Assembly: GCA_030431255.1 (NCBI GenBank)
Contig: JAUIJL010000006.1
Span: 468,613-532,612, forward strand
Direction of reading: 5' to 3'
Source of the DNA: Thermoanaerobaculia bacterium
GTDB lineage: Bacteria; Acidobacteriota; Thermoanaerobaculia; Multivoradales; J023
Length of the DNA: 64,000 nucleotides
Shown here: positions 7,078 through 29,217 of the stretch, piece after piece
How the letters are laid out: each line of letters starts with the position of its first letter
Numbering within the stretch: the stretch's first letter is position 1
The notes under the pieces: generated by a model
The model's database searches: none
Seen by the model: only the letters and a program-made list of their open reading frames with translations
What the model was told of the DNA's origin: nothing
Program-made: the position numbers and the translations under genes

Positions 7078-7848
7078 ATGATCCGATATCTATTCCTGCT
7101 CAAAGAATTCGTGCGACGTGACTTCGAAGGCCGCTACGCGGGATCGATGCTTGGTTTCCTCTGGTCGTTGCTACAGCCCGGCTGGCAGCTCCTGCTATTT
7201 ACCTTCGTGTTCTCCACAGTGCTCAAAATCTCGTTGCTCGGCGAACGAACCGAGAGCTTCGGCATCTTCTTATTCTGTGGTCTTATGCCATGGTTGGCCT
7301 TTCACGAGGGTGTCTCCAGATCTTCGACGGCGATTACCGAAAACGCCAATCTGGTGAAGAAGATCCACTTTCCCGCTGAAATCTTGGTTCTATCCGTGGT
7401 CTTGGGTGGTGTCGTGCACCAGCTGATCGCGTCCGGTCTCTTTCTCGCGGTATTGCTGGTGGTCGGGGAATTTCACTGGAAGGGCCTGCCTCTGATAGCG
7501 CTGGCACTACCGATTCAGATTGCCATGACCGTGGGCCTGGGGTTGATCGTCGCCACCGCCAACACGTTTTTCCGCGATGTGGGGCAGCTGCTGGGCATGG
7601 TGCTGATGGGCTGGTTCTATTTTACTCCCATCGTCTATCCCCTGGATCAGGTACCGGAGGACTACCAGCAGATGCTTCTAGTCAACCCGATGACAGCCTT
7701 GGTAGATCTGTACCGAGAAGCTTTTTTGGGTGGGCACCTTTCCGCGGCCCGCGGCTTGACCTGGTTGACGGTGACCGCCGCCGGCGTGATGGTCGTGGGT
7801 CTGTGGCTGTTCCGGAGGATGAAGCCTTTGTTCCCGGACGAGCTCTGA
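7078..7848 (+). CDS. wzm: ABC-2 type polysaccharide/polyol-phosphate export permease (Wzm/TagG-like)
   Basis: 256 aa with six predicted helices. N-terminal LLKEFVRRDFEGRYAGSMLGFLWSLLQP and NANLVKKIHFPAEIL are characteristic of ABC-2 glycan exporters. Confidence 0.85.
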   Translation: MIRYLFLLKEFVRRDFEGRYAGSMLGFLWSLLQPGWQLLLFTFVFSTVLKISLLGERTESFGIFLFCGLMPWLAFHEGVSRSSTAITENANLVKKIHFPAEILVLSVVLGGVVHQLIASGLFLAVLLVVGEFHWKGLPLIALALPIQIAMTVGLGLIVATANTFFRDVGQLLGMVLMGWFYFTPIVYPLDQVPEDYQQMLLVNPMTALVDLYREAFLGGHLSAARGLTWLTVTAAGVMVVGLWLFRRMKPLFPDEL

Positions 7849-8024
7849 AGGGGCGACACAAGCAGCGGTAAAACTTCCGAAAAACGCCATGCGAAATCAA
7901 CATGGGCCTATGTTTCGCGCGTAAGATCCGGCTCCCATCCACGAAGTCCACGCTCAGGCGAGCGGCGCGGATGCGGCCTATGGGCTCAAGTCGAGCCCAG
8001 CCCAGATTTGAAGGAGAGATTCGA

Positions 8025-9728
8025 ATGCAAGCGAGAAGAGAACATATCCAGCGCCTTAGCGTTTTCGGTTGGGCGGCGATCGGCGCGCTGTCCTTGATCT
8101 GGCTGCCCGCGTCGTTCGCTCAAGACGCGGACGAAGCGGCCGCAAGTGCCGGTGATCAAGCTGCTGAAGAGCAGACCACCGCGGAGAGCGCCGAAGAATC
8201 CTACGACTGGATTATGGACGAAAAGCGCGGTCGCCGCTATCGGGTTGAGCGCATTCCCAAAGTAGAGAAGACGTTCCGCTACGTCAGTGAGGATCGGGTT
8301 CGTTTTCCCGGAGGCGCGGTCTTTGAGGTGGTCGACGTGGAGGAAGATTGGTTCCATGTGAAGGTCTATGAGCGCCTGCCCAACAAAGTCGCGCCCACCC
8401 CTCCTCCCGCTGGACCCAGCGAAGAAAAGATCGCTGCCGTAGAAGCCGCCTATGCCGCCGATGTCGAGCTGGTGAACCGTCTCGGATTTCAGCCTTTTGA
8501 CAAGGGGCTACCGGTCAGCGGGCAATGGCGAAACGGCTTCGACGTCGCGGACATGAACGGCGACGGTCATTTGGACATCATCTTCGGACCGGCCCGAAAA
8601 GGACGCTCCACCCCCAACATCTTCCTGGGGGACAGCGCAGGAAATTGGCAGCGTTGGAACGACGTTCGCTATGCACCCGCGCCCTACGACTATGGCGCGG
8701 TGAAGGTCGGGGATCTGGACGGCGACGGTCACCTGGACATGGTCTTCGGCATCCACCTACGTGGCATGTTCGCTGCTCGGGCCGACGGTAAAGGTGGATT
8801 CGAGCCTTGGTCCGAAGGCATAGAGATCGATATGCCCGGGGCCGGCGGAGACGCCACTTCCTTTTCGTCTCGGGCCCTGAAGCTGGTCGACTGGAATGGT
8901 GACGGCAAGCTCGACATCGTTGCCCTGGGGGAAGGACCGAAAGGTCTGAAGACCCAGAAGGACAGGAGAGGTCAAAACCAACTGATCAACACCGCCCGAG
9001 GCTTCTTGGTCTACCTCAATAATGGGGACGGCACTTGGAAGGTGCATGCCCAGGAGCGAGGAGACAACCAACGAGCCAACTTCGGCGACAACTTCGCGAT
9101 CGCCGATCTCGATGGCGATGGGCATTGGGACTTGGCGACGGTGACCCGTCAGCTGGGTAGCAAGCTGGTGCTCGCAGAAACGGACGACACCACCATCAGC
9201 TATCGACAGGTTGAGGCCGTTCGTTCGAAGGCATTCGTCGACGCGGTCGAATTTGCCGACATCGACAAGGACGGGCACCAAGATCTGATCCTCAGCTATC
9301 GCAACCACGAGCTAGAAACCTGGCGCTCCGGAATCGACATTCTTTACTACCAAGAAGGCGGTGATTTCCGCCGGGAGACCCTCTACGCGGTCGAGGGTCG
9401 AACCAATTTCGGCGCGATCGCAAGCGGTAACCTCAATCAAGATAAACGGGCCGATATCGTCGTCGGAGACAACGAGGGAAATCTTTGGATCTTCCTGTCC
9501 GATGAAGAGAAAGGATTCGTCTTGGAGGGTGCTAAGGAGCTGAGCCAGAAGCGGGACGGTTGCCGCGCCTTCGATATCGCTCTGGTCGACCTCGACAAGG
9601 ACAACTTGGACGAAATGATCGTCGGGTTTGCGGGTGAGCCGACGGGCTATCCAGGGTTCCCCAATCTGAGCAAGCCGGGTTGTGTTCGAGAGGGATCGAT
9701 CCGGGCTTGGAAGGTGACCGCCAACTAA
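8025..9728 (+). CDS. Secreted FG-GAP/VCBS repeat protein
   Basis: Repeated calcium-binding-type motifs DMNGDGHLDIIFG, GDLDGDGHLDMVFG, VDWNGDGKLDIVALG, ADLDGDGHWDLA, ADIDKDGHQDLILS and NQDKRADIVVG. Start set at ATG 8025 (AAGGAGAG RBS, signal peptide ending SFAQD). Confidence 0.8.
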   Translation: MQARREHIQRLSVFGWAAIGALSLIWLPASFAQDADEAAASAGDQAAEEQTTAESAEESYDWIMDEKRGRRYRVERIPKVEKTFRYVSEDRVRFPGGAVFEVVDVEEDWFHVKVYERLPNKVAPTPPPAGPSEEKIAAVEAAYAADVELVNRLGFQPFDKGLPVSGQWRNGFDVADMNGDGHLDIIFGPARKGRSTPNIFLGDSAGNWQRWNDVRYAPAPYDYGAVKVGDLDGDGHLDMVFGIHLRGMFAARADGKGGFEPWSEGIEIDMPGAGGDATSFSSRALKLVDWNGDGKLDIVALGEGPKGLKTQKDRRGQNQLINTARGFLVYLNNGDGTWKVHAQERGDNQRANFGDNFAIADLDGDGHWDLATVTRQLGSKLVLAETDDTTISYRQVEAVRSKAFVDAVEFADIDKDGHQDLILSYRNHELETWRSGIDILYYQEGGDFRRETLYAVEGRTNFGAIASGNLNQDKRADIVVGDNEGNLWIFLSDEEKGFVLEGAKELSQKRDGCRAFDIALVDLDKDNLDEMIVGFAGEPTGYPGFPNLSKPGCVREGSIRAWKVTAN

Positions 9729-9756
9729 GGAAAGGGATCGTCCGAGGCACTCCCAC

Positions 9757-9788
9757 CCGAAAGCGCCGGCGCTGCCCGGCGCTTTCGG
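9757..9788 (+). terminator. Hairpin terminator after the FG-GAP gene
   Basis: Perfect 13-bp inverted repeat CCGAAAGCGCCGG/CCGGCGCTTTCGG with a 6-nt loop, 29 nt after the stop. The downstream T-run is weak. Confidence 0.55.
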
Positions 9789-9888
9789 CATTTATGCTTC
9801 TGGCTTCATATGAAGTGCCCATGAAAAGGGTTGTCCCCAACCACCGAGGTTCGATACGGTGCGGCGCTCAGTCGGGAGCCGGAACCTA

Positions 9889-9918
9889 TTGACAAAATAG
9901 GGTGTGGTGCCATATTCT
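9889..9918 (+). promoter_or_regulatory. Candidate sigma-70 promoter for the 446-aa secreted protein gene
   Basis: Perfect -35 TTGACA (9889..9894) and TATTCT (9913..9918) after an 18-bp spacer. This is the only consensus-grade -35 in the 660-bp intergenic region. Confidence 0.4.
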
Positions 9919-10390
9919 GTGCTGGTTCATGCTGAGATTAGGCTCCCAAAGGCTGGGTTTTGAGAAATTTACGACGATTTTTCGCAATCTGAGCCCTGCG
10001 AAGGTTGCCTATCCGTGGCGACTTTGGGTACACTGCCAGCTCGCCGACGGAAAATGAGCCGCGATCTCCGGCAAGCCATCTCAACGGGTAGCTTGGCGAC
10101 TGCAAATGGAGACGGTGGCCCCCTCGGCAGAGAATTTGAAAATTTGACGGGTTCTGAGCGAATGCTCATAGATTCACGACCGAAATTTCTGGGAATTCCC
10201 AAGACTTTTAACAGGAGGTGAGTGCCCGCCACCCAGAAGGAAGCAAGTTCCTTCGAATTGTTTAGAGAGTCCAACACCGTTTGTTGGATGATCTCGCCCC
10301 GATAAGTTGAAGGGCGAGATGTTAGCGCCCTAAGTTGAGACGGCCATCTTGTTTGCGCCGTCAACTAAATTGCTAGGAGTTAAATCAGAG

Positions 10391-11728
10391 ATGAAGAGAT
10401 TTGCTCTTGTCTTGATGCTCGCGAGTCTTCTCGCGCTGGGCGGGCAAGCCTTTGCTGAGATGTGCACCATCGACGCTGTTCCGGCTGCTACCCTGCTTGT
10501 GCCTTACTTCGAGGTTGACCTCGACAACACCGACGGTGTGACCACCCTGTTCTCGGTCAACAATGCTTCGGCCGCTCCGGCCCTGGCCCACGTGACCCTC
10601 TGGACCGATTGGTCGCAACCCTCCGTCGACTTCGACATGTTCCTCACGGGATATGATGTCATCACCGTTAACCTGCGCGACGTGTTCAACGGCAACATCC
10701 CGATCACCGCGGATGAGCAGAGCGACGGCGGCGACACCATCAGCCCCCACGGCTCCAACCCGCAATGGGACGGCAGCTTCACCGATTGTGACGGCTTCTT
10801 CCCGTTCTTCAACAACCCGGTCATCCAGGGCGACAACCTCGAGCGTGTCGTCGACGGTCACACCGGTAACGACGTGTTGGGCCAAGGCTGCATGGGTCAC
10901 ACCCACGGTGACAACATCGCCCGCGGTTACATCACCATTGACAACGCCACTCGCTGCTCCATCGAGTTCCCGAGTGACGACGGTTACTTCGGTGGCCTGA
11001 ATCCCGTTGCTTCCAACGAGAATCAGCTCTGGGGTGACTACTTCATCGTCGATCCGGGCAACGCGTTTGCCTTCGGCGACAACCTGGTCCACGTTGAGGC
11101 CGATGACGCGTTCGACGCTTCCTCGACCCCGACCAACTACACCTTCTACGGTCGTTACACCGCCGCTACCGGTGGTTTCGACAACCGTGAGCCGCTCGGC
11201 ACGACCTGGGGCGTTCGCTACCTGAACGGTGGCGCCTTCTCCGGTGGTACCGACCTGATCGTGTGGCGTGACTCCACCAGCTCCGACACCCAGACCTTCT
11301 ACACCTGTGGCGTGGGTCCGGACTGGTACCCGATGAACGAGACCGAAGTGGTTGCGTTCGACGAGGAAGAGAATGCCGTGGAGCTCTGCTTCACCGGCCA
11401 AGGCGGTGTTATCTCCCCGCCGACCCCGGGCAGCGACCCGGCCTGCTTCCCGCTCGAAACCCAACGCACCGCTTACGGTGCCGGCCCTCTCGCTGGCCCG
11501 TATGACTTCGGTTGGCTCTACCTGAACCTGAACGTTGGCGTCGACACCATCACTGGTGATGCTGATTTCGGTTCCGGTGGCACCTTGGCCCAGAGCTTCG
11601 TGGCTGCTGCTCACAGCGCCTCCGGTCTGTACCAAGTTGGCCTCCAAGCCATCGCTCTGACCAGCGCCTGTGACGACGTTGATCCGTTGATCACCGATCA
11701 GGGCACCATCCCGCAGAACGGTCTCTGA
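10391..11728 (+). CDS. Secreted acidic protein of unknown family (446 aa)
   Basis: ATG 10391 preceded by AGGAG. Signal peptide MKRFALVLMLASLLALGGQAFA. The mature part is D/N/G/T-rich with 8 Cys and contains no motif I recognise. Strong coding signal and expression-type codon bias. Confidence 0.85.
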   Translation: MKRFALVLMLASLLALGGQAFAEMCTIDAVPAATLLVPYFEVDLDNTDGVTTLFSVNNASAAPALAHVTLWTDWSQPSVDFDMFLTGYDVITVNLRDVFNGNIPITADEQSDGGDTISPHGSNPQWDGSFTDCDGFFPFFNNPVIQGDNLERVVDGHTGNDVLGQGCMGHTHGDNIARGYITIDNATRCSIEFPSDDGYFGGLNPVASNENQLWGDYFIVDPGNAFAFGDNLVHVEADDAFDASSTPTNYTFYGRYTAATGGFDNREPLGTTWGVRYLNGGAFSGGTDLIVWRDSTSSDTQTFYTCGVGPDWYPMNETEVVAFDEEENAVELCFTGQGGVISPPTPGSDPACFPLETQRTAYGAGPLAGPYDFGWLYLNLNVGVDTITGDADFGSGGTLAQSFVAAAHSASGLYQVGLQAIALTSACDDVDPLITDQGTIPQNGL

Positions 11729-11744
11729 TCCGTTCTTAGGGAAC

Positions 11745-11806
11745 GAGTGAAGGGCTAGCCCTTCACTCTGGAAACGGGCTCATCCTTCTGGATGGGTCCG
11801 TTTTTT
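11745..11806 (+). terminator. Tandem intrinsic terminators after the 446-aa secreted protein gene
   Basis: Hairpin 1 is GAGTGAAGGGC-TA-GCCCTTCACTC (11745..11768). Hairpin 2 is AACGGGCTCATCC/GGATGGGTCCGTT (11773..11802), running into TTTTTTCGTTTTTC. Confidence 0.8.
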
Positions 11807-12184
11807 CGTTTTTCTTTCGCTGCCCTTTTTTAGCTGTCAGGGATGAGGAAACGGACCTGCAACGATGGCTTCAAGCCTGTTGCAGGGCTCGCGCGCGGCC
11901 GGGATGCTCCCCAGCCCGATCGACCCACCTTCAAGTTTTCCAAGCGGCAGAAGAAATCGCCGCCCTTGTTATTTCAGCATGGTTTGAGCGCCGTTGCGAA
12001 GCCGTCGGGATCCTCAAAAACCCGCGGCAAGCCTGTTAGAAGGCGTTTTAGGCAACGGGCCTTGAATTTCACATAATGCTATGTCAACATGTCAGCTCTT
12101 CGACGCAGTCTCGTACAGATTAGATTCTTCTCCGATTTCAGGTCCCCCATTCCAAGCGTGCGTCGCGGATTCAAGGAGATTTCC

Positions 12185-15157
12185 ATGATCGATCGTCATT
12201 CGTTTCGCCGCCGCTCTCCGAGAGCAGCGGTCCTTGCCATGTCCTCTTTCTTCCTGCTTCTGCCTCCCACCGTTTTCGGTGGAGAAGAGGAATGTGGTGT
12301 TGGACGGCTTGGGCGACCGGTTCCCCAAACCCGGGCCGAAATGGGGCCGAACGAATACCTATGGCCGAGAAACGGTGCGGGTGCATTCACCTTTAGGCCT
12401 GCCAGCAATGGTTCAGGCGAGCCCTACTCCATTCCTGGAAACCGCGACAGCACGAGCTACATCACCCAGACCATTCCCGGAAATCAATCGGGCCACGAGC
12501 TGTTCATGGATGTCGCCCAAGTTGAGGGTAACGACGATTGGTTGTTTGTGGCCTATAACGCGGGCCTACAGGTATGGGACCTGAGAAGCGACCCCGCGAA
12601 TCCCAGCCGAGCAGCTTTCCGCGACGGTTGGTTGGGCCACTTCGACGAGTTTCCCGCCGCCGGCGAGGTGGACACCTACGTTGAGGCTCTGGGAGTGGTG
12701 CAATCCGGCGGCGACTATCTCATTGGTCTGGCCGGGCGCAGTGGTCATGGATTCTCGTTCTGGGAGTTCACGCCGCCCTCTACCCTGACCCAGCACTGCC
12801 AGGTATCTACTCATGTGGCTCGTCAGGTTGAGCTGATTGAGCACAACAACAGAGCCTACGCCTTTGTTTCTACATCCGATGGTCTTTTCGTATACGACCT
12901 GGATTCATCGCAAGGGGGCACCTGTGTGCTCGAGGGAACCGTCGGAACCATGAGCGACGGAAACTACGTTTCGGTGCTACAAAAAGACGGCGATGTATTC
13001 GTTGCGGCCGCCGACGGTAGCTTGTTGGGCTCAGACCCCCTTGCTGTTGAGATTTGGGAAGTGGATCCTGAAAATCCCGGCTCGGCTCGTCAGCTCTTCG
13101 ATGGCTTCAACACCAACTCCAGGGGCGTCGCGCTATTTGAGATTCCCGGTGCGGTCAGCCGCTACTTCCTCGGCTTTATTGAATCCTCGAACACGATCAA
13201 GTTCTATGACGTCGAGGCCTGCCTGGAGCATGTCGGTCCGGGAACTTGCGGCAGCCTAGGTAGCCCAGTCGCAACTCAGTCCGTGCAGAGCATCGGCAAG
13301 CTTTACGAGTTCCTGGACGTCTCCAGCAGCAGCGACGGCAGGACTTGGGGGTACTACGGATTCATGACCAGCCCCGGTCTCTTCGGGTCGAAGTTCGAAT
13401 ACCTGCTCGATCTCACCCCGTTGGCTTCTACGAGTCTTCAAGAAGCGCAATCTATGGGTGGAGTCACACTGGATGAGATTACCGATGGCGGTGACACCTA
13501 CCCCAACTCCTCACCTTGCTCCAATACGGCGCCTATCGATTATTGGGGTGATTACTACCCGCTGAGCCGTCATGGGTTGAACTTCCTTACCCCGCGACAC
13601 GGAATTTTCATCGGCTCGTATTTCTATCGCGCTGCTTACAGCATGTTGGACATCCACGAGATCACCAACACTCCAGCGGTTTCCAGCGTGACCACCAGCT
13701 TCAACGGCCCGGGTTCCACAATCTGGATGGATGAAACCGCCTCGTATACCGCTACACCGGGGGGTTCATGCTCGCCGGTGGCAGGGGATTGGTGCTGGGT
13801 GGTCGAAACCGCCGGTGGAGCGGGTGACGTGTGGTCCCATTCGCCGGACCTCGGCGATTGCAGCGCAAGCTACAGCAACCCCGAAAGCTTCGACTACTCC
13901 TGCTCTCCCGGTGGCGGCGCCCGCTGTGGAAACGGCACCGCAATGGTCACTGCATGGAATACCAACTGTGGCTCCTTCCCGCCGACCAATACCCAAAGCA
14001 ACTCGGTCACGATTACGATCAAAGATCCGACCGTGGAGATTGAGGGTTCCCTAGACACTGGCGGCACCTTGTACCAGCAGTGTCAGGTAGTTTCCATGGA
14101 CGCGTCTGTGGGTGGTCGTGGGCCGATCACATGGGAATGGCTCGTCGATGGTGAGCCATTGGATGGGTGCTCCGGCAGCGTGTCGACCACTACCGACTTG
14201 GCACCCACGGATCTGAGCTGCCTGTGGGATACCAGCGGTGTGCAGTTGGTCAATATCTTTGCCGACGGTTTCGAGACCGGCGATGCCGTCCGGTGGTCCT
14301 CTTCCGTCGGGCTGCCGACGCTGAAAATGGCGGGGAATCATTCAAACCACCGCGCCTTCCGAGCACTGAGCTTCGGTAAAGGCGAGTCGCCGTCACTGGA
14401 CCTAGATGTCGAGCTTGTGGTGTCCAACGGCTCGGTGCTCGACTCCGAGATGGTCACGATCACCATCGAGGAGATCGGACAGCCGTCGTTCGTCACTCCT
14501 GGAGATCCCACCAGCGCATCGGTGATCGGCAACTCGGCGACGATCATGGCACCGGCCAACGACACCTCCGCTTGGTCTTGGGAGATCGAAGATCCCGACC
14601 TAGGTGACGCCCCCTGCTCGTTCGATGGCGCCGCCTCTTGCGTGACCACGGAAACCTTCACCGACACCCTGGTCTACGCTTGGGTGACGGATGGTGACCA
14701 TCGCTACAAAGTGTCCATCTCCAACTGCCAATTCGGTGGCTCGGAGATGGCGACGGGATCGGTGACGGTGTCTGCCGCGGTGGATCCCGTGATCACCACG
14801 TTCCGCTTCAATCCCGCGACCGCAACGGAGTTCTGCTGTGGCAGCCCGTTCGCGGGTTTTGAGTGCCAATCGGGTGTGGCGATTGAATTCCAGGTCTCCA
14901 TGCTCGAAGAGGCGGTCTACGGATTCGGGTTCGATTGGGAGCGGACCTCCCAGGGCTCCGCGACCTACCAATCGCAGTCTCCGGACGGCAATACCCTGGC
15001 GACCTATTCGTTCACCCATACGTTCTCAAATTCCGGCAGCGAGCGGACCGTTTATCCGGTGGTCCAGGTCACCAGCGGTCTGAGTAACGATACGGATGAC
15101 TTCTACACCAGCGATGGCGCGATCACCATCTTGGCGAACGGCCAGACCTGTAACTGA
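12185..15157 (+). CDS. Large secreted protein: LVIVD-like beta-propeller N-terminal half plus Cys-rich Ig/PKD-like modules
   Basis: ATG 12185 preceded by AAGGAGA; signal-like SSFFLLLPPTVFG. Repeated strand motifs include WLFVAYNAGLQVWDL, AYAFVSTSDGLFVYDL, VFVAAADGS..VEIWEV and TIKFYDV. An internal ADGFETGDAVRWSS linker motif is present. The domain assignment is from pattern recognition only. Confidence 0.75.
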   Translation: MIDRHSFRRRSPRAAVLAMSSFFLLLPPTVFGGEEECGVGRLGRPVPQTRAEMGPNEYLWPRNGAGAFTFRPASNGSGEPYSIPGNRDSTSYITQTIPGNQSGHELFMDVAQVEGNDDWLFVAYNAGLQVWDLRSDPANPSRAAFRDGWLGHFDEFPAAGEVDTYVEALGVVQSGGDYLIGLAGRSGHGFSFWEFTPPSTLTQHCQVSTHVARQVELIEHNNRAYAFVSTSDGLFVYDLDSSQGGTCVLEGTVGTMSDGNYVSVLQKDGDVFVAAADGSLLGSDPLAVEIWEVDPENPGSARQLFDGFNTNSRGVALFEIPGAVSRYFLGFIESSNTIKFYDVEACLEHVGPGTCGSLGSPVATQSVQSIGKLYEFLDVSSSSDGRTWGYYGFMTSPGLFGSKFEYLLDLTPLASTSLQEAQSMGGVTLDEITDGGDTYPNSSPCSNTAPIDYWGDYYPLSRHGLNFLTPRHGIFIGSYFYRAAYSMLDIHEITNTPAVSSVTTSFNGPGSTIWMDETASYTATPGGSCSPVAGDWCWVVETAGGAGDVWSHSPDLGDCSASYSNPESFDYSCSPGGGARCGNGTAMVTAWNTNCGSFPPTNTQSNSVTITIKDPTVEIEGSLDTGGTLYQQCQVVSMDASVGGRGPITWEWLVDGEPLDGCSGSVSTTTDLAPTDLSCLWDTSGVQLVNIFADGFETGDAVRWSSSVGLPTLKMAGNHSNHRAFRALSFGKGESPSLDLDVELVVSNGSVLDSEMVTITIEEIGQPSFVTPGDPTSASVIGNSATIMAPANDTSAWSWEIEDPDLGDAPCSFDGAASCVTTETFTDTLVYAWVTDGDHRYKVSISNCQFGGSEMATGSVTVSAAVDPVITTFRFNPATATEFCCGSPFAGFECQSGVAIEFQVSMLEEAVYGFGFDWERTSQGSATYQSQSPDGNTLATYSFTHTFSNSGSERTVYPVVQVTSGLSNDTDDFYTSDGAITILANGQTCN

Positions 15158-15291: not shown

Positions 15292-16503
15292 ATGAGCGAG
15301 ACATTGATACAAGCCGAACGTTTATCGAAGACCTACAAGGTGTTTGCCCGTCCAGTCGACCGATTCTTAGAAGGGGTCACCGGCCGCCCTCGTCACCAAA
15401 AAGTCGAGGCATTGAAGGACGTCGGTTTCGAGCTGAAGGAAGGTGAAGGGCTCGGAATTGTCGGTGAGAACGGAGCCGGCAAGAGCACACTTCTGAAGAT
15501 CCTCTCCGGGGTCACAGTGCCGACCGAAGGTCGGCTTCGGGTAGAAGGTCGAGTCGCCTCTTTATTGGAGCTGGGGATGGGGTTCCACTCCGAGCTGACC
15601 GGACGCCAAAACATTCGACTGAACGCTGCGATGATGGGGTTTACGGACGAGGAAACCGACGCCAAAACACCGAGAATCATCGACTTCAGCGAGCTCGGCG
15701 AGTTCATCGATCGTCCGATCAAAACCTATTCGAGCGGCATGGCCATGCGCTTGGGTTTTTCCATTGCGGTTCAGGTCGAGCCCGATATTTTGATCATCGA
15801 CGAGGCGCTGTCGGTGGGCGACGGGTACTTTCAGAAGAAGTGTATGGACGAGATCCGTCGCCTGTTGGATAGGGGCTGCACATTCCTCTTTTGCTCCCAT
15901 GCCATGTATTACGTCTCTCACTTTTGCGACCAAGCCCTCTGGCTGAGGAAAGGGCGGGCCGAGGCGTTCGGTGAGGTCGCGGGCGTAGTTCGGGAATATG
16001 AGTCGTTTCTGGCCAGGAAATCCAAAAAGAACCGCCCTCAAGAAGACCTACCCGAGAAAGAGGGACCGGCGAGCTTTACGGCCGCGCGGATGCTGGGTGG
16101 CAAAGACGGGGTTTATCGACGCGGAGATGCTTTGGGCATCGAGGTGTCGTGGCAGGCGGAAAAGCCCGATTTGGGATTCCACCTCGGAGTCGCCGTCGAC
16201 CGTAGCGACGGGGTTCAAATCATGAGCTTCTCGAGCCACCGCGACGGGCGGGATCCTTTGACCGGCTCGACTCGCCACCATCTCCGCCTTTGGGTTCGAG
16301 ATCTGCCCTTGTTGCGCGGTGAATTTGAAATCTATCTCTTCTTGCTCGGCGAGGCCGGCCTGCATCTATACGATCAGCGGCGAGTCCCGGGCGCATTTAC
16401 CGTCGAATCCCAGCAATACGACATCGGATTGGTAGAAGCGGAGCATGAGTGGTCAACCCTGGCTGCCGAAGACCTCGAAGGGCGACCGGTTCAGCTCGCC
16501 TGA
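15292..16503 (+). CDS. wzt: ABC glycan exporter ATP-binding protein (Wzt/TagH-like) with extra C-terminal domain
   Basis: Walker A GENGAGKST, signature YSSGMAMRLGF and Walker B ILIIDEALSVGD. About 150 further residues follow the NBD, consistent with a Wzt-type glycan-terminus-binding domain. Confidence 0.88.
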   Translation: MSETLIQAERLSKTYKVFARPVDRFLEGVTGRPRHQKVEALKDVGFELKEGEGLGIVGENGAGKSTLLKILSGVTVPTEGRLRVEGRVASLLELGMGFHSELTGRQNIRLNAAMMGFTDEETDAKTPRIIDFSELGEFIDRPIKTYSSGMAMRLGFSIAVQVEPDILIIDEALSVGDGYFQKKCMDEIRRLLDRGCTFLFCSHAMYYVSHFCDQALWLRKGRAEAFGEVAGVVREYESFLARKSKKNRPQEDLPEKEGPASFTAARMLGGKDGVYRRGDALGIEVSWQAEKPDLGFHLGVAVDRSDGVQIMSFSSHRDGRDPLTGSTRHHLRLWVRDLPLLRGEFEIYLFLLGEAGLHLYDQRRVPGAFTVESQQYDIGLVEAEHEWSTLAAEDLEGRPVQLA

Positions 16504-17357
16504 GCCCTCTTTACCGGCGATTTCCAGCCGACGATCTTGACTTGCTCTAGGGGCCGCAAGGGGGCCTGGTCCTTCATCCATTGATCGAAAAGGCGGCGGC
16601 GGAACGACGGGCCGACCAAGTCGAGCCCGGCTTCGATGAGCCGGATCGGCCAAACCGGCCAGCGGACGGGGTCGCTGCCGATGCCGAGCAAGGCTTCGAC
16701 TCTGGAGAAACCCGCGAGTCTGAAAGCCTCCGCCAAGTCGAAGAACGAGTACTCTCTTAAATGAAACCCTTCGGGTCGATCGGAGAAATAACCCGAGATA
16801 TCGTGAGGGCCGTGGAGCCGGTTTGGGGTGATGGCCACGTACGGAGCGCCGGGCTTCAGCCAGCGCAAGACCTGCTCGAGGTGAGGGCCGAGATCGGCGG
16901 GGTGCAAATGCTCCAGGAAGTGACAGCTGAACGCGAGGTCGACGCTATTGCGCGAAATGCGCTCGTCGGCGTCTATGGGCAACACGTGGTGGAAATTGGT
17001 GGCCGGCACCTCGCCACCCTCGGCAATCACCATCGACGCCTCGACGGTCCAAACCTCGTGAACCTCTGTCGCCAGGGAGCGGGCCAAGGAGCCGTCTCCA
17101 GAGCCGATTTCCAGGAAAACCGTGTCGTGGCGAAGAAATGGGGCGATCAGTCGCTTCTGTAAAACCGTCTGCTCGGCGCTCGGGCGGGGAGCGAGGTCTT
17201 CCGGTAGGGCGCGAAAATAGCGATCATAGACTTCTCCGTAGAGCGAGGCTCGCTCGCTTTCCGGCGCAGCCCTCAGCTGGTCCGCAAGCTCTTTTTCTAA
17301 GAGGTAGAGTCGGCGCAGCTCTTCGGGATCACGGTCTGACGGTAGGGGTCGAGGCAT
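16491..17357 (-). CDS. Class I SAM-dependent methyltransferase
   Basis: Motif I VFLEIGSGDGSLARSLA in a Methyltransf_11/23-like layout. Its 3' end overlaps the wzt 3' end convergently by 13 nt. Confidence 0.8.
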   Translation of the reverse strand: MPRPLPSDRDPEELRRLYLLEKELADQLRAAPESERASLYGEVYDRYFRALPEDLAPRPSAEQTVLQKRLIAPFLRHDTVFLEIGSGDGSLARSLATEVHEVWTVEASMVIAEGGEVPATNFHHVLPIDADERISRNSVDLAFSCHFLEHLHPADLGPHLEQVLRWLKPGAPYVAITPNRLHGPHDISGYFSDRPEGFHLREYSFFDLAEAFRLAGFSRVEALLGIGSDPVRWPVWPIRLIEAGLDLVGPSFRRRLFDQWMKDQAPLRPLEQVKIVGWKSPVKRAQAS

Positions 17358-17574: not shown

Positions 17575-18645
17575 GTGGTGCTACATCAGGCGAACCTTAT
17601 GGCCGCTCGGGGTCATCAGGTGTTTGTCGTCGGGCCGGGAAAGGCCCCGGACTGGTTTGCCCTGCATGCCGACTATGTGCAAACCCAGGGGCTCGAGCCC
17701 CATGAGCTGCCACCCGCGGACGTGACGGTGGCAACGTTCTGGACTACCCTACCGGCAGCCAAGCGAGCGGCGGAGCAGGGAGCGTTAGGGGCCGGAGGCG
17801 CGCGCGGTGAGATCATTCATTTCTGCCAGGGATTCGAAGCGGAGCTGACCCACAACCAAGCCGAGCATCCTGCCATTCTCGAAGCCTACGAAACGAATGT
17901 GCCTGCGATGGCAGTGTCACCCCATTTAGCCGCCATCGTCGCCGAGCGATTCCACCGTCCGGCGAGGGTGGTTCCGCAACCCTTGGGCTCCGACTGGCGT
18001 CCCGCTCGGAGGTGGCGACCTCGGCGGCCTCCGAGGATCTTGATCACAGGCCCTTGGGAGATCTATCTGAAGGGGGTTCCGGTGGCCTTGAAAGCCGTGT
18101 TGACCCTCCGTCAAAAGGGGGTGGATGCGCGGATTGTCCGTCTTTCCCAATGGCCTCTGTGTGAAGAGGAGCGTGCGCTGGTGGAGCCGGATGAATTTCA
18201 CCACCATCTATCGCCCGAAGAGGTGCCGGCTCTGACTCGGTCGTGCGACCTGCTGCTGGCGCCGTCCTGGAGCCAGGAGGGTTTCGGCCTACCCGTGCTG
18301 GAAGCAATGGCTGCCGGGGTGCCCTCCGTGGTGTCGGATATCCCCAGCTTTCGTGCCTTTGCGACGGGCTCGTCGGAGCTGGTGCCATTCGACCGGGCGG
18401 ACCTGTTTGCCGATCGTGCGCAAGACCTTCTGGAGAACCCGGCGAAATGGCGGTCTTTGCGTCGCCGAGGGCTGAGGGAGGCACGGCGATTTTCGGAGGC
18501 TGTGGCCGCAGAGGTCATTGAAGAGACCTTGCGATGGGCTGCCGATGGCAGCTGGCGTGACGAGCGACTCGTTGAGAGTGGGCGGAACCGGCAAGATTCG
18601 ACGGAACAAGTGTCGCAAGATGAGCGGCACGGAGAGCGACCTTGA
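17575..18645 (+). CDS. Glycosyltransferase family 4 (GT-B fold)
   Basis: C-terminal GT4 signature SWSQEGFGLPVLEAMAAGVPSVVSD. GTG 17575 has GGAGG 6 nt upstream. However, the conserved N-terminal strand (ISYLLEDTALFGGVK) is encoded in frame upstream without an ATG/GTG/TTG codon, so the start is uncertain. Confidence 0.8.
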   Translation: MVLHQANLMAARGHQVFVVGPGKAPDWFALHADYVQTQGLEPHELPPADVTVATFWTTLPAAKRAAEQGALGAGGARGEIIHFCQGFEAELTHNQAEHPAILEAYETNVPAMAVSPHLAAIVAERFHRPARVVPQPLGSDWRPARRWRPRRPPRILITGPWEIYLKGVPVALKAVLTLRQKGVDARIVRLSQWPLCEEERALVEPDEFHHHLSPEEVPALTRSCDLLLAPSWSQEGFGLPVLEAMAAGVPSVVSDIPSFRAFATGSSELVPFDRADLFADRAQDLLENPAKWRSLRRRGLREARRFSEAVAAEVIEETLRWAADGSWRDERLVESGRNRQDSTEQVSQDERHGERP

Positions 18646-19733
18646 AGCTGGGTGTGGTTTGCGTGCACTACCATGCCGCGTCGTTGGCGGTGCGAGCCCT
18701 CGATGCGATTCGCAGGGACGCCGCAAGCTCGGGCCTCGACTGCAGGGCAGTGATCATCGACAACGGTAGCACCACAGCAGAAGCGGGCGAGCTTCGGACC
18801 AGCGGTGTGAAGATCCTCGAATTGTCCGACAATCCCGGTTATGCGGGCGGCGTCAATCGCGGAGCGGCTGAGCTTCTAGACTCGGTGGACGTGCTGATCG
18901 CTATGAATCCCGACGTCGTGGTTCAGCAGGGCTGTCTAAAGCAGCTTGTGGATGAGATCGAATCCGGGACAGCCGTGGCAGGTCCCCGCTTCTTCTGGGA
19001 TCGCGTGGGGGGGTATCAGCTGCCACCGACCGAAGCCTGCGGTCGTATCGAGGAGTTGGTCCGAGCGCTGGCGAAACGAGGGCCTTTCTGGACCGATCTA
19101 GCCCGCCGCCGCTGGCGTCGGCACGCCTATCGCCATTGGCGAAGCGAGAAGCCGATTCCCAGCTACGATCTGAGTGGCGCCCTCATGGCTATTTCGACCG
19201 AGGCTTGGCGAAAAGTCGGCCCCTTCGACGAGGGGTATCGCCTCTACTTCGAAGAAACCGATTGGCTCCAGCGTTGCCGGAGGCTGGGGCTGCCGGCCAG
19301 ATTCGTCGGTGGAGCTCACGCGATCCATCTCTATGCCCAGAGCACTCCCACCGAGCCGAGGGCCCAGCGGTGGTTTGCCGAATCTCAGGAACGGTTTAGG
19401 AGGCGGTGTTACGGGCGCTCATTTGTGGCGCTGCTCAAGCGATTGGCGGGGGCGCCGGACGCCGCCACCATGGGTCCTGCCGAGCGTTTGGATCCATCCG
19501 CCCCTTGGCCCCGGGAAAGCGCTGATTGGATCGAAATATCACCCGCTGTCCAGGGATTTCCCGCAGCTGCTCTCCGGTTGATGGGCGGAGCCCAAGAGCC
19601 CGTCCTCAGCGAAGCTCTTTGGGGTCAGATGGCGCCGGGCCCCTATTACCTACGAGCCGCTCACGAAGGGGGTGCCGAGGTGTCGAAGGCCTGGGTGCTC
19701 AAATCGGACGACGTAGCTCCATCGGACGACTGA
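18642..19733 (+). CDS. Glycosyltransferase family 2
   Basis: GVVCVHYH..AVIIDNGS..NPGYAGGVNRGA and NPDVVV motifs of GT-A GT2 enzymes. 4-nt overlap with the upstream GT4 gene. Confidence 0.85.
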   Translation: MKLGVVCVHYHAASLAVRALDAIRRDAASSGLDCRAVIIDNGSTTAEAGELRTSGVKILELSDNPGYAGGVNRGAAELLDSVDVLIAMNPDVVVQQGCLKQLVDEIESGTAVAGPRFFWDRVGGYQLPPTEACGRIEELVRALAKRGPFWTDLARRRWRRHAYRHWRSEKPIPSYDLSGALMAISTEAWRKVGPFDEGYRLYFEETDWLQRCRRLGLPARFVGGAHAIHLYAQSTPTEPRAQRWFAESQERFRRRCYGRSFVALLKRLAGAPDAATMGPAERLDPSAPWPRESADWIEISPAVQGFPAAALRLMGGAQEPVLSEALWGQMAPGPYYLRAAHEGGAEVSKAWVLKSDDVAPSDD

Positions 19734-21585
19734 CGGCGATCAGCTGTCCCGAGCCCTCTTTCCTCTGTTCGACCCACCACACGATCAACGAGTCCCGGCC
19801 GTAGAGATTCCCCATGGATTCGACCAGCGGCCGCGGCAGGTGAATCGCGAGGGGTGCCGGCTCCGATCCTGGAGTGGGATCCAAGGTCAGCCCTTCGAGG
19901 TGATAGCTACCGCGAGCGATCACCGCAAGGCGATATTGGGATCCCACCGCCGGGTCCAAGAAAGCGACCGGTCCGAAATCTTGTTCCCGAATCGTTCTAG
20001 CTTGCCCGGTGCCTTGGGGACGGCGGAGCACCAGCTCGTCGGGAAGAGAGTGTTCTACTCGAGTCGCCCGGCCGTTGGCCCAGCGCAACAGCCGACCCTC
20101 GGGAAGAGCCGTGAGCGGCGCCAAGGCGTGATCGCCTAGGGGAGGTAGCGGCAACACTTGTGGCCCGAAAGGGGGAGAGAATGGAGGCATCAAGGCGTCC
20201 GACAGACCCCAATGAAATACCTGAGCCGCCGGCACACCGTGAATCTTCAAAAAACGAGGCACGTCGGCCACGAAGAGCCGGCTTTCGCCCTCAAGCCTCA
20301 ACGCGTCTTGAATCAGGGCTGCGGTCTCGCCCGCTTCGCGGTAGAGCTTGACCATCGGCCACAGCATGGCAGCGTAGAGCGCATTGATGACCAACAAGCC
20401 CATCACCAAACAGGCCTTGGGCCGTGCGAGCCTCAAGCGGGCCGTCACGCATTGGATCAGCGCGCACCAAAAAAGTGCCAGGCCGCAGGACGCCAAATAC
20501 CAATATCGACCGTTGCCAGGCACCACGCCCACGAAGCTGAAGGGCGCCAACGATATGAGAATCCAGCTCAATGCGATCAAGGCCAGGGTCTCGTCGTGGG
20601 TTTGTCGACCGAGCGCCCAGCGCGCGAGCCCCCACAGACCGAAGGCGGCAACGCCCACCGAGAGGGTGCCGATCGAAATTCCATAAGACGGAAACACCAT
20701 CCGGCCCAAGCTGCCGAGCATGGCCTCCAGCAGAGCCACCACATCCCCGAAGCGATCCCGAAAGGTCGGATAGCCGCCGATGGAATGCCCCAACAGGACC
20801 CGCCGCAGGGCGAGATAGAGCACCAGAACCAACCAATAGGGAAGGTGGTGAAGGATGAGCCTTCGCCAATGACGTTGTCCCTCGGGACCACTCGTAGATC
20901 CCGCGCCTTCGGCACTCTCCGCACCCTTGGGCGGAGTGGCGGATCGGCTCCTAAGAACCTCAAAAGCGAGCAAATAGGCGGGCAAGATTGCGGCTTGCTC
21001 ATAACAAGCCAAGCCGGCGATGAAGGCGAGCAGGCTGCCGCGCGCTCTGCCCTCGATAAATCGCCGGAGGCTGAGCAGCAAGAGGCCGACCGCCAGAAGG
21101 GTGGCAAAGCTGGCGATGAACACCACCGTATTGGGGTGAAGGGGATATAGAGCAAAGATGCCGGCGGCGGCGAAGGGAATCGCCGTTTCAAAGGCAGGGG
21201 AAGCCGGGGGATTCGGTCCTGGATTGCGAACGAGGCGCACCAAATCTTGGACCTGCCACGCGTTCAGCAGGTGAATGGCGAGGTGCACCACGCCGTAACC
21301 CGCGGAGAAGGTTCCGAAAAGGGTCCACTCGAGTTGAAGGAATAGGCTCGACAACGGCCGAAAGAAAGACACGATCGAGAGACCGAGCCATGGGCCGGTA
21401 AAGCTTTGCCATGCGGTAGCCCAAAAGCGCCCCGCCTCCTGAGCTTCATAAAAACAGCGAAGGATCAAGAAATCCTCGCTGACGAAACCCCTGCCGATAG
21501 CGGGAGCGTAGAGACAGGCGGTCACCGCGGCCGTCAGCGCGGCCAAGAACAAAGAGAGCTTCGAAACTGGAGCGGCGCGTCTCAC
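19699..21585 (-). CDS. Polytopic membrane glycosyltransferase, GT-C fold-like (PMT/TMTC/ArnT-like), with about 170-aa C-terminal soluble domain
   Basis: About 11-13 hydrophobic helices. The N-terminal motif series GFVSEDFLIL, FFRPLSSL and GYGVVHLAIHLLNA resembles the first-loop acidic motif and following helices of GT39/GT83/DUF1736-type enzymes. Assignment is from memory of the family pattern. Confidence 0.6.
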   Translation of the reverse strand: MRRAAPVSKLSLFLAALTAAVTACLYAPAIGRGFVSEDFLILRCFYEAQEAGRFWATAWQSFTGPWLGLSIVSFFRPLSSLFLQLEWTLFGTFSAGYGVVHLAIHLLNAWQVQDLVRLVRNPGPNPPASPAFETAIPFAAAGIFALYPLHPNTVVFIASFATLLAVGLLLLSLRRFIEGRARGSLLAFIAGLACYEQAAILPAYLLAFEVLRSRSATPPKGAESAEGAGSTSGPEGQRHWRRLILHHLPYWLVLVLYLALRRVLLGHSIGGYPTFRDRFGDVVALLEAMLGSLGRMVFPSYGISIGTLSVGVAAFGLWGLARWALGRQTHDETLALIALSWILISLAPFSFVGVVPGNGRYWYLASCGLALFWCALIQCVTARLRLARPKACLVMGLLVINALYAAMLWPMVKLYREAGETAALIQDALRLEGESRLFVADVPRFLKIHGVPAAQVFHWGLSDALMPPFSPPFGPQVLPLPPLGDHALAPLTALPEGRLLRWANGRATRVEHSLPDELVLRRPQGTGQARTIREQDFGPVAFLDPAVGSQYRLAVIARGSYHLEGLTLDPTPGSEPAPLAIHLPRPLVESMGNLYGRDSLIVWWVEQRKEGSGQLIAVSRPMELRRPI

Positions 21586-22949
21586 GCCAGATCGCCGTCG
21601 CCCATGGTGTAGTAGAGGTGCTTCAACAGCTCTTGGGAATCTTCCCGAAGAAACGGGACCGTCATCAGCGCCAGATCATTCGGCTCCTCGGTCGGCTCGA
21701 AACCCAGGGTGATCAGCTGCCGGCGCCACCACTCCGGGCGGCTGGGGAACCAGGCTTCGATGGATTCCGCTCCGTCCATGGAAGGGTGCTCCATGGCCAC
21801 CCGCAACATCGCCCAAGCCGACTCTAGATGTTTGGGGTCAAAGAGCGCATCGCACCATTTGATGCGGTTTTCGTGGCGCCGAAACACGGACCAGCCGACC
21901 AAGCGGCCCCATTTTCGAGCCGCCAGCACCAGGAACGGTGGATCGTCTGGACAGTCCACATATCGCCACTTCAGCCAGGCTGCGTCGCGACGAACGAGAA
22001 GGCCGTAGTGGGGGCCGACCCGTTGAAAGAATCGATCCCAGCTGCGATCGAACGAACGGGGAACGGAAATTCGGTAGCCGTGGTCGGCTCCCGGGGCGAC
22101 GCCAACGGGGCGGATCCAATAGCCGACGCTGTCCACTGGATAGGCGTTGACGAATCGGCGGCTGAATTTTTGAATGTTGCCGGTGTTGAAGCCGAAATTG
22201 AAGGCGACTCGTTGCTCGCAATAGGTGGCGAAGAAATGCCGGACACAGCGGCCCAACAGGCTGGTAGGTCCTCGGCCGACGCTGCGGAATGACGGCAGGG
22301 TCATGGTGTCGCCGATCTGCAACCCCAGCGATTGCTCCTCAGGGGCTCGGCGACCGAATGTCTTCTTACCGAAACGGCTGAAAATCACGGGGTAGCCGGC
22401 GTAGTGGGCCGCCAGGGTGCCGTCCACATGCCGCGCAATCGTGATCAATCGGGAGCCGAAAGGGTTGCGTTCGAACTTCCACCGCCAGTGCTCGAGACTC
22501 CGTTCCACATGGAAGCTGGGCTTGAACATCTGAAGGATGTCCCGCTCGTCTCCCTCTTGGAATGCGCGAACCTCGAAATCCGTGGGCCGTGCGACCATCA
22601 GATGCCACTCAGACTCTGGGAGGGAGCGTTCCTCGTGGACCGCGAAGCCACGGCGAGAGAGACTCAGGATCGACTCGCGACGGTGGCCACCCGAAACGGC
22701 GAGAATCAGCCGCGAGCGCTCTGCCATCAAGCTCGGAACAGCCGCCAGCTCCGATTCGCGGCAAGGCCCGTCCGGTCGCCAAATGACCATATCGAAGGGC
22801 TCGTCGCCGTTTAGGCTTTGGGGCAAGGCATCGAGGGATCGGGTGGTTTCCTCGCCGCTCAGGAGGTCCGGTCCCCGCAAGCCGACCATCAACAATCTCG
22901 ACGGCTTTCGCTTGGCGAATTTACTCAGCTCATTGAGCAACGAATCCAT
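21582..22949 (-). CDS. GNAT/FemAB-like acyltransferase with about 130-aa N-terminal extra domain
   Basis: Segment FQEGDERDILQMFKPSFHVERSLEHWRWKFERNPFG is typical of GNAT-type enzymes in exopolysaccharide loci. Start placed at ATG 22949 (MDSLLNEL), because the ORF-track start at 23105 would overlap the divergent gene at 23084. Confidence 0.55.
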   Translation of the reverse strand: MDSLLNELSKFAKRKPSRLLMVGLRGPDLLSGEETTRSLDALPQSLNGDEPFDMVIWRPDGPCRESELAAVPSLMAERSRLILAVSGGHRRESILSLSRRGFAVHEERSLPESEWHLMVARPTDFEVRAFQEGDERDILQMFKPSFHVERSLEHWRWKFERNPFGSRLITIARHVDGTLAAHYAGYPVIFSRFGKKTFGRRAPEEQSLGLQIGDTMTLPSFRSVGRGPTSLLGRCVRHFFATYCEQRVAFNFGFNTGNIQKFSRRFVNAYPVDSVGYWIRPVGVAPGADHGYRISVPRSFDRSWDRFFQRVGPHYGLLVRRDAAWLKWRYVDCPDDPPFLVLAARKWGRLVGWSVFRRHENRIKWCDALFDPKHLESAWAMLRVAMEHPSMDGAESIEAWFPSRPEWWRRQLITLGFEPTEEPNDLALMTVPFLREDSQELLKHLYYTMGDGDLA

Positions 22950-23083
22950 GGTTTCCCTTCCGACGACCCGGGCGAATCGCGCTTCAATTCGGATGCCGAT
23001 AGACGAACGGCTAGTCGCAGGCAAAGGATATACTCTGCGCGCCGCAGGGTCGAAAGACTCCTTGCAACCATCCGCGGAGAGCC

Positions 23084-29073: not shown

Positions 29074-29217
29074 ATGTCACGTTACGCAGGGTAAGGTGCC
29101 TTATTCGATCGGCATTCTACTTTTTTCTGAGATCCCCGTCTTTCTTCTTCAGATTTGCTCTTATGGGCCGCTAGAAAAGCCGGGAAAAGCGCTTGGGTCA
29201 TCGGCTCGGAGGTTCTT

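Follow-up and report, generated by a model that had tools for sequence, protein, structure and literature searches.

Lipopolysaccharide (LPS) tethers the A-layer of Aeromonas salmonicida to the cell, and the A-layer genes, including that of the 49-kDa protein VapA, are inserted between wzm and wzt of an ABC-2-type O-antigen cluster, with accessory genes in the same insert and glycosyltransferase (GT) genes located after wzt (PMC4483657). Here, we describe a locus of this layout from a Thermoanaerobaculia bacterium of the phylum Acidobacteriota, contained in a 64,000-nucleotide stretch of forward-strand DNA (GenBank assembly GCA_030431255.1, contig JAUIJL010000006.1, positions 468,613 to 532,612; hereafter the window, in whose coordinates all positions are given). 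Its central gene, at 10391-11728 on the plus strand, encodes a 445-residue secreted protein. It belongs to a very large secreted-protein family, unstudied so far and specific to the Thermoanaerobaculia, and is a good candidate for the cell-coat protein of these mostly uncultured bacteria. As in Aeromonas, a structural gene, here for a 45-kDa product, is enclosed by wzm and wzt; a methyltransferase and GTs come after wzt. Provisionally, the coupling of a surface or coat protein with an exporter of O-antigen can be regarded as a known kind of arrangement, while the family and the fold encountered here are undescribed. No sequence similarity between VapA and the 45-kDa protein was found, though VapA and its fold were never compared with it directly. 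The two loci also differ in content, since the Aeromonas insert carries a dedicated type II secretion system (T2SS) and the Thermoanaerobaculia cassette instead encodes two secreted propeller proteins. Furthermore, the 45-kDa protein has eight conserved cysteines, no lysine, and many paralogues, and its assembly into a lattice is hypothetical.

A further parallel exists among Gram positive species. The CWB2 module of Clostridioides difficile and the SLH module of Bacillus anthracis are each common to an abundant S-layer protein and to many multidomain paralogues, and the corresponding genes adjoin the locus that makes the polysaccharide ligand. The domain described here likewise exists both as a stand-alone protein and fused to other modules, and it too is found in a wzm/wzt context. 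However, CWB2 and SLH are wall-anchoring repeats of about 55-90 residues, whereas the present domain is a single unit of 400 residues in a diderm, for which glycan binding is hypothetical. Beta-sandwich carbohydrate-binding modules (CBMs) and lectin-like domains are mostly beta, as is the predicted model of the 45-kDa protein, but no significant match to them was obtained, the query-normalised TM-score reached at most 0.21, and no Pfam CBM was detected.

The gene product is a real, Sec-exported, disulfide-bearing, and beta-rich protein. Both the coding sequence and the translation reported in an earlier note on this DNA were recovered as described. The signal peptide, MKRFALVLMLASLLALGGQAFA followed by E, occupies 22 residues (10391-10456) and is of typical Sec type, with an MKR start, a hydrophobic core, and a cut between AFA and E; the note had its length right, while the mature chain (10457-11725) counts 423 residues instead of the 424 given there. 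This chain has a mass of 45.0 kDa, an isoelectric point of 4.05, eight Cys, and no Lys, and G (11.8%), D (10.2%), and T (9.2%) are prominent in its composition, with N also abundant, all of which agrees with the acidic, D/N/G/T-rich, eight-Cys exported protein that had been proposed. All eight cysteines are invariant or nearly so in an alignment of 31 homologues with 54-83% identity, and the six sequence blocks previously singled out as conserved-looking are all found in the protein and are conserved in the same homologues. At 38-55% identity, the positions that remain invariant within the family include C133, C167, C189, and C306, together with D89, T182, D184, N211, D264, R266, R293, and Q401. 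Since the Sec signal is conserved throughout the family and the Cys pairs are invariant, an oxidising extracytoplasmic location is indicated for the protein. Of its four N-X-S/T sequons, none appears conserved as such in the alignment; N58 is invariant, its sequon S/T not. By inspection of the sequence, we rejected a lipoprotein, a PEP-CTERM protein, and an outer-membrane beta-barrel, as there is neither a lipobox nor a C-terminal sorting or aromatic signal. The depletion of lysine is a family-wide trait as well: among members P0001-P0268, the mean Lys content is 0.34% and 39% of the proteins have none at all, with Arg at about 2.9%. Protease resistance, avoidance of modification, and surface charge are all possible reasons for this.

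Searches of curated resources returned no characterised relative. There was no match for the 45-kDa protein in Pfam or NCBIfam at E <= 10, in PADLOC or PHROGs at E <= 0.01, or among PDB sequences, whether the single protein or a profile was used as query, and so the earlier assertion of no recognisable family holds for these collections. An AlphaFold2 model built from a 32-sequence alignment (mean predicted local distance difference test score [pLDDT] 83, predicted template modelling score 0.86) is mostly beta, with about 19 strands and three short helices. Foldseek found nothing for this model at E <= 1e-3 in either PDB or BFVD, the best values being E 0.03 with a query-normalised TM-score of at most 0.21 in PDB, and E 3e-3 with 0.13 in BFVD. 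The sub-threshold matches (E >= 0.03) were to beta-sandwich domains, namely CBMs, glycosidase accessory domains, and TM1070. Nor was an internal duplication between the N-terminal and C-terminal halves detected (hhalign probability 0.4). Thus, the profile and structure-prediction searches that had been suggested as a check matched no characterised family or fold, and the predicted fold is provisionally new as judged against PDB and BFVD.

The protein is by no means an orphan, as had been claimed. A word-indexed search yielded at least 4,987 homologues at E <= 1e-3 among 8,000 scored, and the best 120 of these share 54-96% identity with the query, lack any Pfam domain, and, wherever a name is given, are called hypothetical protein. 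An exhaustive profile search gave 2,107 cluster representatives at 50% identity, 1,023 of them scoring E <= 1e-30, and a scan of one genome per species located at least 571 encoding loci. Nearly all homologues come from metagenome-assembled genomes of Thermoanaerobaculia. The best 79 loci derive from such assemblies labelled Thermoanaerobaculia, Thermoanaerobaculaceae, Acidobacteriota, 'Ca. Multivoradales', or, in one case, Holophagae, except for two that belong to isolates whose label is simply 'bacterium' or 'uncultured bacterium'; the samples were taken from soil, sediment, and marine hosts. Several genomes hold many family loci, and tandem arrays of two to five paralogues are common (five in locus L019, four each in L035 and L065), although no second copy was found in the window. 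Paralogues were also encountered in unrelated gene contexts.

About a third of the top 150 representatives exceed one domain in length. Many of these consist of two tandem copies (800-900 residues), and in large proteins the domain is located at the extreme N- or C-terminus, often the latter. The fusion partners comprise PKD, DUF11 (up to 12 repeats), DUF7507/CARDB, Big_5/Big_9/cadherin-like, and Calx-beta domains, as well as cupredoxin, P-domain, BACON, and, in one case, an Exo_endo_phos nuclease. With the single exception of the nuclease, these are typical extracellular or cell-surface modules.

The genomic setting of the family is equally characteristic. In the window, the gene is bracketed upstream by wzm, encoding an ABC-2 permease (7078-7848, plus strand; Pfam ABC2_membrane 4.9e-23, with a weak NCBIfam Wzm/KpsM match), and downstream by wzt, encoding an ABC ATPase (15292-16503, plus strand; Pfam ABC_tran 1.4e-21, NCBIfam TagH/Wzt-like), the C-terminal domain of which gives a weak Wzt_C match (3.6e-5; 24.2 bits vs a Pfam cut-off of 30.4). 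Between wzm and the 45-kDa protein gene is a gene for a secreted FG-GAP/VCBS beta-propeller protein with a single N-terminal hydrophobic segment (7902-9728, plus strand; Pfam FG-GAP_3 3.3e-31). Between the 45-kDa protein gene and wzt is a gene, here called BIG, for a secreted protein of about 1,000 residues with a predicted beta-propeller and Ig-like stalk (12089-15157, plus strand; the database protein starts at 12185). The order wzm, FG-GAP, one to five copies of the family gene, BIG, wzt, and GTs is kept in orthologous loci down to about 45% identity. In a set of 81 loci, for which neighbour counts were limited by 6-kb flanks, wzm was found upstream of the family gene in 30 and FG-GAP directly upstream in about 35; on the downstream side, BIG was present in about 35, and wzt followed the family gene or genes in 17. 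Two of these loci, L024 and L019, are contiguous in one genome and together read wzm, FG-GAP, one family gene, BIG, further genes, five family genes, and wzt. Relative to loci L003, L004, and L009, the 45-kDa protein shows 57-66% identity and Wzm/Wzt 61-69%, compared with 41-49% for the FG-GAP protein and 28-30% for BIG.

Another distinguishing feature of the gene is its codon usage. Among the 25 genes of the window, its effective number of codons (Nc) is the lowest, at 35.1; that of atpD is 38.0, and the immediate neighbours have values of 48-51. Its codon adaptation index, calculated against atpD, is 0.70, whereas the other genes apart from atpD range from 0.45 to 0.63, and it is the only gene besides the reference atpD itself to have a positive atpD-versus-bulk log-likelihood. 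The codon choice resembling that of atpD, which the earlier note had read from the sequence, is therefore borne out, as is the higher adaptation index relative to the neighbours that had been named as a test, the reference used being atpD. This bias extends beyond the window, the Nc of the family gene falling below that of its neighbours in 91% of 46 related loci. TTA, CTA, and TCA codons are never used by the gene. Its antisense strand contains an open reading frame (ORF) of 420 residues (10385-11647, minus strand), and it could be argued that this frame is the real gene, or that there is no gene at all, and that the sense frame is an annotation artefact. A long open antisense frame is indeed present, but it remained open in every one of 1,000 synonymous resamplings made with the gene's own codon usage and in just 1.3% of those made with the usage of its neighbours. 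The frame is thus fully explained by codon usage and is therefore a shadow ORF, exactly as had been surmised. Given in addition thousands of sense-frame homologues, each with a signal peptide, the idea of an artefact is refuted and can be dismissed with near certainty.

The signals surrounding the gene likewise suggest strong, independent expression. A promoter candidate, P1, is located about 470 nt before the ATG (9889-9918, plus strand) and can be read as TTGACA-N16-CATATT (9889-9916) or with N18-TATTCT; it scored 10 of 12 in a promoter scan, with a TG extension, and in the 82% orthologous locus L083 its hexamers are kept and its spacer has diverged. When the 128 family copies preceded by 520 nt or more of sequence were scanned, a perfect TTGACA with a good -10 element at a spacing of 16-18 nt was found for 37, as opposed to 1 of 256 control windows. 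The -10 element was TATAGT in 25 of these 37 copies, and the distance from the -35 element to the start codon had a median of 289 nt (range 105-484). This family-wide enrichment, together with the retention of the P1 hexamers in L083, supports the claim of a promoter belonging to the gene itself and of a leader of some 470 nt. A weaker candidate, P2 (10144-10174, plus strand; TTGACG-N17-CATAGA at 10144-10172 or N19-TAGATT), some 30 nt ahead of the leader motif described below, was read from the sequence by eye and was not called by the promoter scan. Clearer counterparts occupy the equivalent position in other clades (TTGACC-N17-ATAAAT in L011, CTGACA-N17-TATAAA in L058, L060, and L079, and also in L164 and L168), and for this reason tandem promoters P1 and P2 are likely. 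The proximal leader (10175-10390, plus strand) is predicted to be structured, with several hairpins such as that at 10236-10254; the RNA fold of 10175-10400 has a free energy of -72.1 kcal/mol (z = -4.25), and none of 200 shuffles was as stable. A ribosome-binding site, AGGAG (10375-10379, plus strand), precedes the ATG by 11 nt, and orthologous loci retain GGAG in the same position.

Within the leader is a conserved motif, ACTTTTAACAGGAGGTGAG (10204-10222, plus strand), which carries the perfect Shine-Dalgarno (SD)-like sequence GGAGGTGA 177 nt before the ATG. The block CTTTnAnnnGGAGGTG is the sole invariant one in the aligned intergenic regions of nine orthologous loci, and across loci L003-L081 and L091-L210 the motif takes the form (A)CTTTnAACrGGAGGTGAt. 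It has one match in the window, where 0.02-0.03 would be expected by chance. Of the 81 loci, 31 contain it once each, without exception in the orientation of the gene. Its distance to the family copy that it precedes, one in each locus, is 82-210 nt, and 29 of 115 copies are preceded by it in this way. The plain sequence GGAGGTG precedes 42 of the 115 copies, compared with an expectation of about 5%. Conversely, in an exact-match scan of metagenome contigs, a family gene follows 33 of 120 matches of the motif. No Rfam family was matched by the motif, and Rfam applied to 9600-12200 returned only a chance-level CRISPR-DR30 match (E 0.97). An upstream ORF behind the SD-like sequence was considered and ruled out, as no conserved start codon follows the motif. 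Codon bias is no different between family copies with and without the motif (Mann-Whitney p = 0.75).

The closest described analogue of this element is the STAB-SD of the Bacillus thuringiensis cryIIIA gene (Agaisse and Lereclus 1996, as cited in PMC7509114). Like the leader described here, that of cryIIIA is long and has a perfect SD-like sequence far from the start codon. The cryIIIA gene is very highly expressed, as the Thermoanaerobaculia gene would be, and belongs to a different phylum; to our knowledge, STAB-SD-like stabilisers were previously known only from Firmicutes. What defines such an element, an SD-complementary leader sequence remote from the start codon and not followed by an ORF, is what was found in this leader. 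Elements of this type also prolong mRNA half-life through 30S binding, as the motif may do here. In arrangement, the motif resembles a STAB-SD mRNA stabiliser, although a regulator, such as one of the CsrA type, might bind there instead.

At the 3' end, two tandem hairpins (11745-11768 and 11770-11805, within 11745-11815, plus strand) together fold at -45.4 kcal/mol (z = -5.6). The first is perfect, and the second is accompanied by a T-run, making it an intrinsic terminator; hence, of the two tandem terminators previously proposed, both hairpins exist, but only the second has the T-run. Throughout the family, the 100 nt following the stop codon have a median z of -2.6, and a hairpin with a T-run was present in 42 of 116 copies. 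Judged by these signals, the gene would be a self-contained transcription unit. Several contigs of 1.5-1.6 kb hold a family gene alone, with a 5' flank longer than the 3' flank; some begin at or near the leader motif, some end at the terminator, and their JGI contig ranks are low. This is suggestive of metatranscriptome assemblies, that is, of transcripts. Overall, the family appears to be among the most strongly expressed genes of the Thermoanaerobaculia, as far as can be told from such signals. As a separate observation, in some genomes the family gene is duplicated in tandem or as near-identical (>= 90%) copies whose terminators are identical, for example L189 (a metagenome contig of 1812 nt) and the P0013/P0281 cluster on a 5.2-Mb contig. 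These hint at recent gene amplification, and they make assemblies collapse into single-unit contigs.

Based upon the wzm-wzt bracket, the fusions, the biased codon usage, the expression signals, and the Aeromonas precedent, we favour, tentatively and at somewhat less than an even chance, the reading that the 45-kDa protein is an abundant coat or anchor protein working with an exported surface glycan; we infer that it is highly abundant, is located at the surface, binds glycan, and forms a coat. It would be the major stand-alone form of a Thermoanaerobaculia-specific surface domain, made in large amounts from a stable monocistronic mRNA with one or more strong sigma70-type promoters, a long structured leader with an internal SD-like stabiliser, and hairpin terminators. 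Following export by Sec and cleavage of the signal after AFA, the protein would presumably fold in the periplasm into a compact beta-rich domain with about four disulfides, and would then reach the cell surface, where it may form or decorate an outermost, S-layer-like coat. There, it could bind, or be tethered via, an O-antigen-type glycan exported by the flanking Wzm/Wzt ABC transporter. Carried on PKD, DUF11, Big, Calx-beta, or CARDB stalks, the same domain may serve as the anchor or head of other surface proteins. Several further observations are in keeping with the coat or anchor reading: tandem paralogue arrays occur within the same wzm...wzt bracket, both conserved neighbours are secreted propellers of receptor- or adhesin-like architecture, the organism is an LPS-bearing diderm, and the secretion signal, acidic isoelectric point, and size of 40-200 kDa that characterise S-layer proteins are all found in the 45-kDa protein (Sec, 4.05, and 45 kDa, respectively). 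The location of a structural gene between wzm and wzt, typical of the Aeromonas locus, was likewise observed both in the window and in related loci. The S-layer-like surface role proposed in the earlier note is strengthened, as a candidate function, by the wzm-wzt position, the adhesin-type fusions, and the family-wide expression signals. If all of its elements are combined, the result would be an undescribed cell-coat system in which a 45-kDa, lysine-free, disulfide-locked subunit of new fold is tethered to an O-glycan, assisted by two propeller helpers, reused as the anchor of dozens of adhesin-like paralogues, translated from a STAB-SD-like mRNA, and inserted in convergence with the Aeromonas A-layer; in this full form, we consider the proposal rather doubtful.

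A number of points weigh against a coat. Classical S-layer proteins usually contain little or no Cys and normal or high amounts of Lys, and the combination of eight conserved Cys and no Lys is atypical of them. The predicted model is also unlike any solved S-layer protein according to Foldseek. The conservation of the protein equals that of the ABC transporter subunits; this would be uncommon in a coat protein exposed at the surface, but is in line with high expression. Moreover, the cassette contains no dedicated outer-membrane export system, T2SS domains were absent from the subset of window ORFs scanned, and the Sec signal by itself only places the protein in the periplasm. It could accordingly be asked whether the protein is instead an abundant periplasmic component that never leaves this compartment, such as a scaffold or chaperone of glycan export or a buffer of envelope stress. 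The Sec signal is the only one demonstrable, neither an outer-membrane targeting signal nor an export system is found nearby, and disulfides form in the periplasm, all of which would suit such a role. Conversely, the PKD, DUF11, CARDB, Calx-beta, and BACON fusion partners are typically extracellular and multi-copy tandem arrays are atypical of periplasmic housekeeping proteins, such that we regard a purely periplasmic function as very unlikely. As for the transcript-like short contigs, these can also arise from assembly breaks at tandem repeats, as in L189.

The invariant D89, D184, D264, R266, and R293 would fit an enzyme or a metal site as well, and, with N211 and Q401, they argue for a secreted or periplasmic enzyme of new fold, be it a glycan hydrolase, lyase, or modifier, acting on the Wzm/Wzt polymer or on environmental polysaccharides. 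The high sequence conservation, the location in a glycan island with a sulfatase nearby, and the weak, sub-threshold Foldseek matches to glycosidase beta-sandwich domains and CBMs all point in the same direction. Yet no enzyme family was matched significantly by sequence or structure, the many tandem paralogues and the use of the domain as a terminal module on adhesin-like stalks, not with catalytic partners, speak against catalysis, and a codon bias above that of atpD would be unusual for a polysaccharide-processing enzyme; an enzymatic role is consequently unlikely in our view. The same stalks can be viewed differently, since a position at the N- or C-terminal tip of giant PKD/DUF11/Big/cadherin proteins is typical of adhesin heads. 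The protein might then be a lectin or adhesin head for external ligands such as particles, host or prey surfaces, or minerals, secreted in bulk without forming a coat, and both the beta-rich predicted fold and the expansion of paralogues, which suits diversified binding specificity, would be compatible with this. Ligand-binding heads usually diverge fast, however, whereas the paralogues are rather conserved, and the conserved wzm...wzt position points to the cell's own glycan; this explanation does not seem a likely one either.

Thermoanaerobaculia are common in soils, sediments, and marine hosts, and their cell envelope is almost undescribed; a search of the literature for Thermoanaerobaculia S-layers or highly expressed hypothetical proteins found nothing relevant. 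Against this background stands a family of at least 5,000 sequences in about 2,100 clusters (50% identity), with no annotation, no structural relative, and a conserved five-gene cassette that includes a glycan exporter. If the 45-kDa protein is indeed a coat or anchor protein, it would define the interface of these bacteria with phages, hosts, and minerals, and would offer an abundant marker for metaproteomics as well as a target for cell sorting or enrichment. It would equally represent a new fold and a new principle of surface anchoring, and the layout in which wzm and wzt enclose an S-layer gene would reach beyond Aeromonas into a distant phylum. Lastly, the SD-like leader element provides a testable case of ribosome-mediated mRNA stabilisation beyond the Firmicutes.

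The remainder of the locus includes genes of glycan synthesis, in agreement with the glycan export and glycosyltransferase island that had been recognised previously: in addition to wzm and wzt, it contains a methyltransferase and several GT2 and GT4 genes. The methyltransferase (16491-17357, minus strand; Pfam) adjoins wzt at the start of the synthesis island and is followed by a GT4 (17575-18645, plus strand; Pfam) and a GT2 (18642-19733, plus strand; Pfam), with further GT2, GT4, and PIG-L genes up to about 30 kb of the window. Upstream of wzm, the window contains the atp operon and genes for an M23 peptidase and a sulfatase. The presence of an LptD gene (58412-60826) shows that the organism is a diderm with LPS. 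The FG-GAP gene is closed by a terminator-like hairpin (9757-9788, plus strand) with a 13-bp stem, 10 GC pairs, and a T-rich tail. As listed, its ORF has about 40 residues ahead of the predicted signal or anchor segment (residues 52-70), and the true start is probably an internal Met. The FG-GAP protein also gave a sub-threshold NCBIfam match (E 1.6e-3) to the 'surface polysaccharide biosynthesis protein' M949_RS01915. BIG, for its part, matched nothing in Pfam or NCBIfam, and Foldseek related its AlphaFold2 model (pLDDT 64) to the SorCS2, plexin, integrin alphaV, and LGI1 ectodomains (E 5e-13 to 1e-6). Its architecture is thus like that of eukaryotic plexin, integrin, and SorCS ectodomains, and the protein is fast-evolving, with 23-36% identity between loci.

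Beside the GT genes is a 628-residue polytopic membrane protein (19699-21585, minus strand) with about five or six hydrophobic segments and an N-terminal 'GFVSEDF' loop, for which no Pfam or NCBIfam match was obtained; it may be a GT-C-type glycosyltransferase or a ligase for a protein or lipid acceptor. It adjoins a 507-residue ORF (21582-23105, minus strand) with no family assigned, and the island also includes a fusion of a PIG-L deacetylase and a GT2 (23084-24970, plus strand). Further along lies the gene of an extracytoplasmic function (ECF) sigma factor (28450-29073, minus strand), which could regulate envelope genes, as well as a GT2 gene (29155-30132) and one for a PEGA-domain protein (30060-31499). 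Finally, the motif F(A/R)DGFE(S/T)GD..W(S)SS is found in BIG (at about 14250-14300, corresponding to residues 690-704 or so of P0269) and recurs as the C-terminal tail of P0067, P0097, P0105, P0108, and P0116, all paralogues of the 45-kDa protein. In this lineage, the motif might act as a linker, as a site of processing, or as a signal for sorting.

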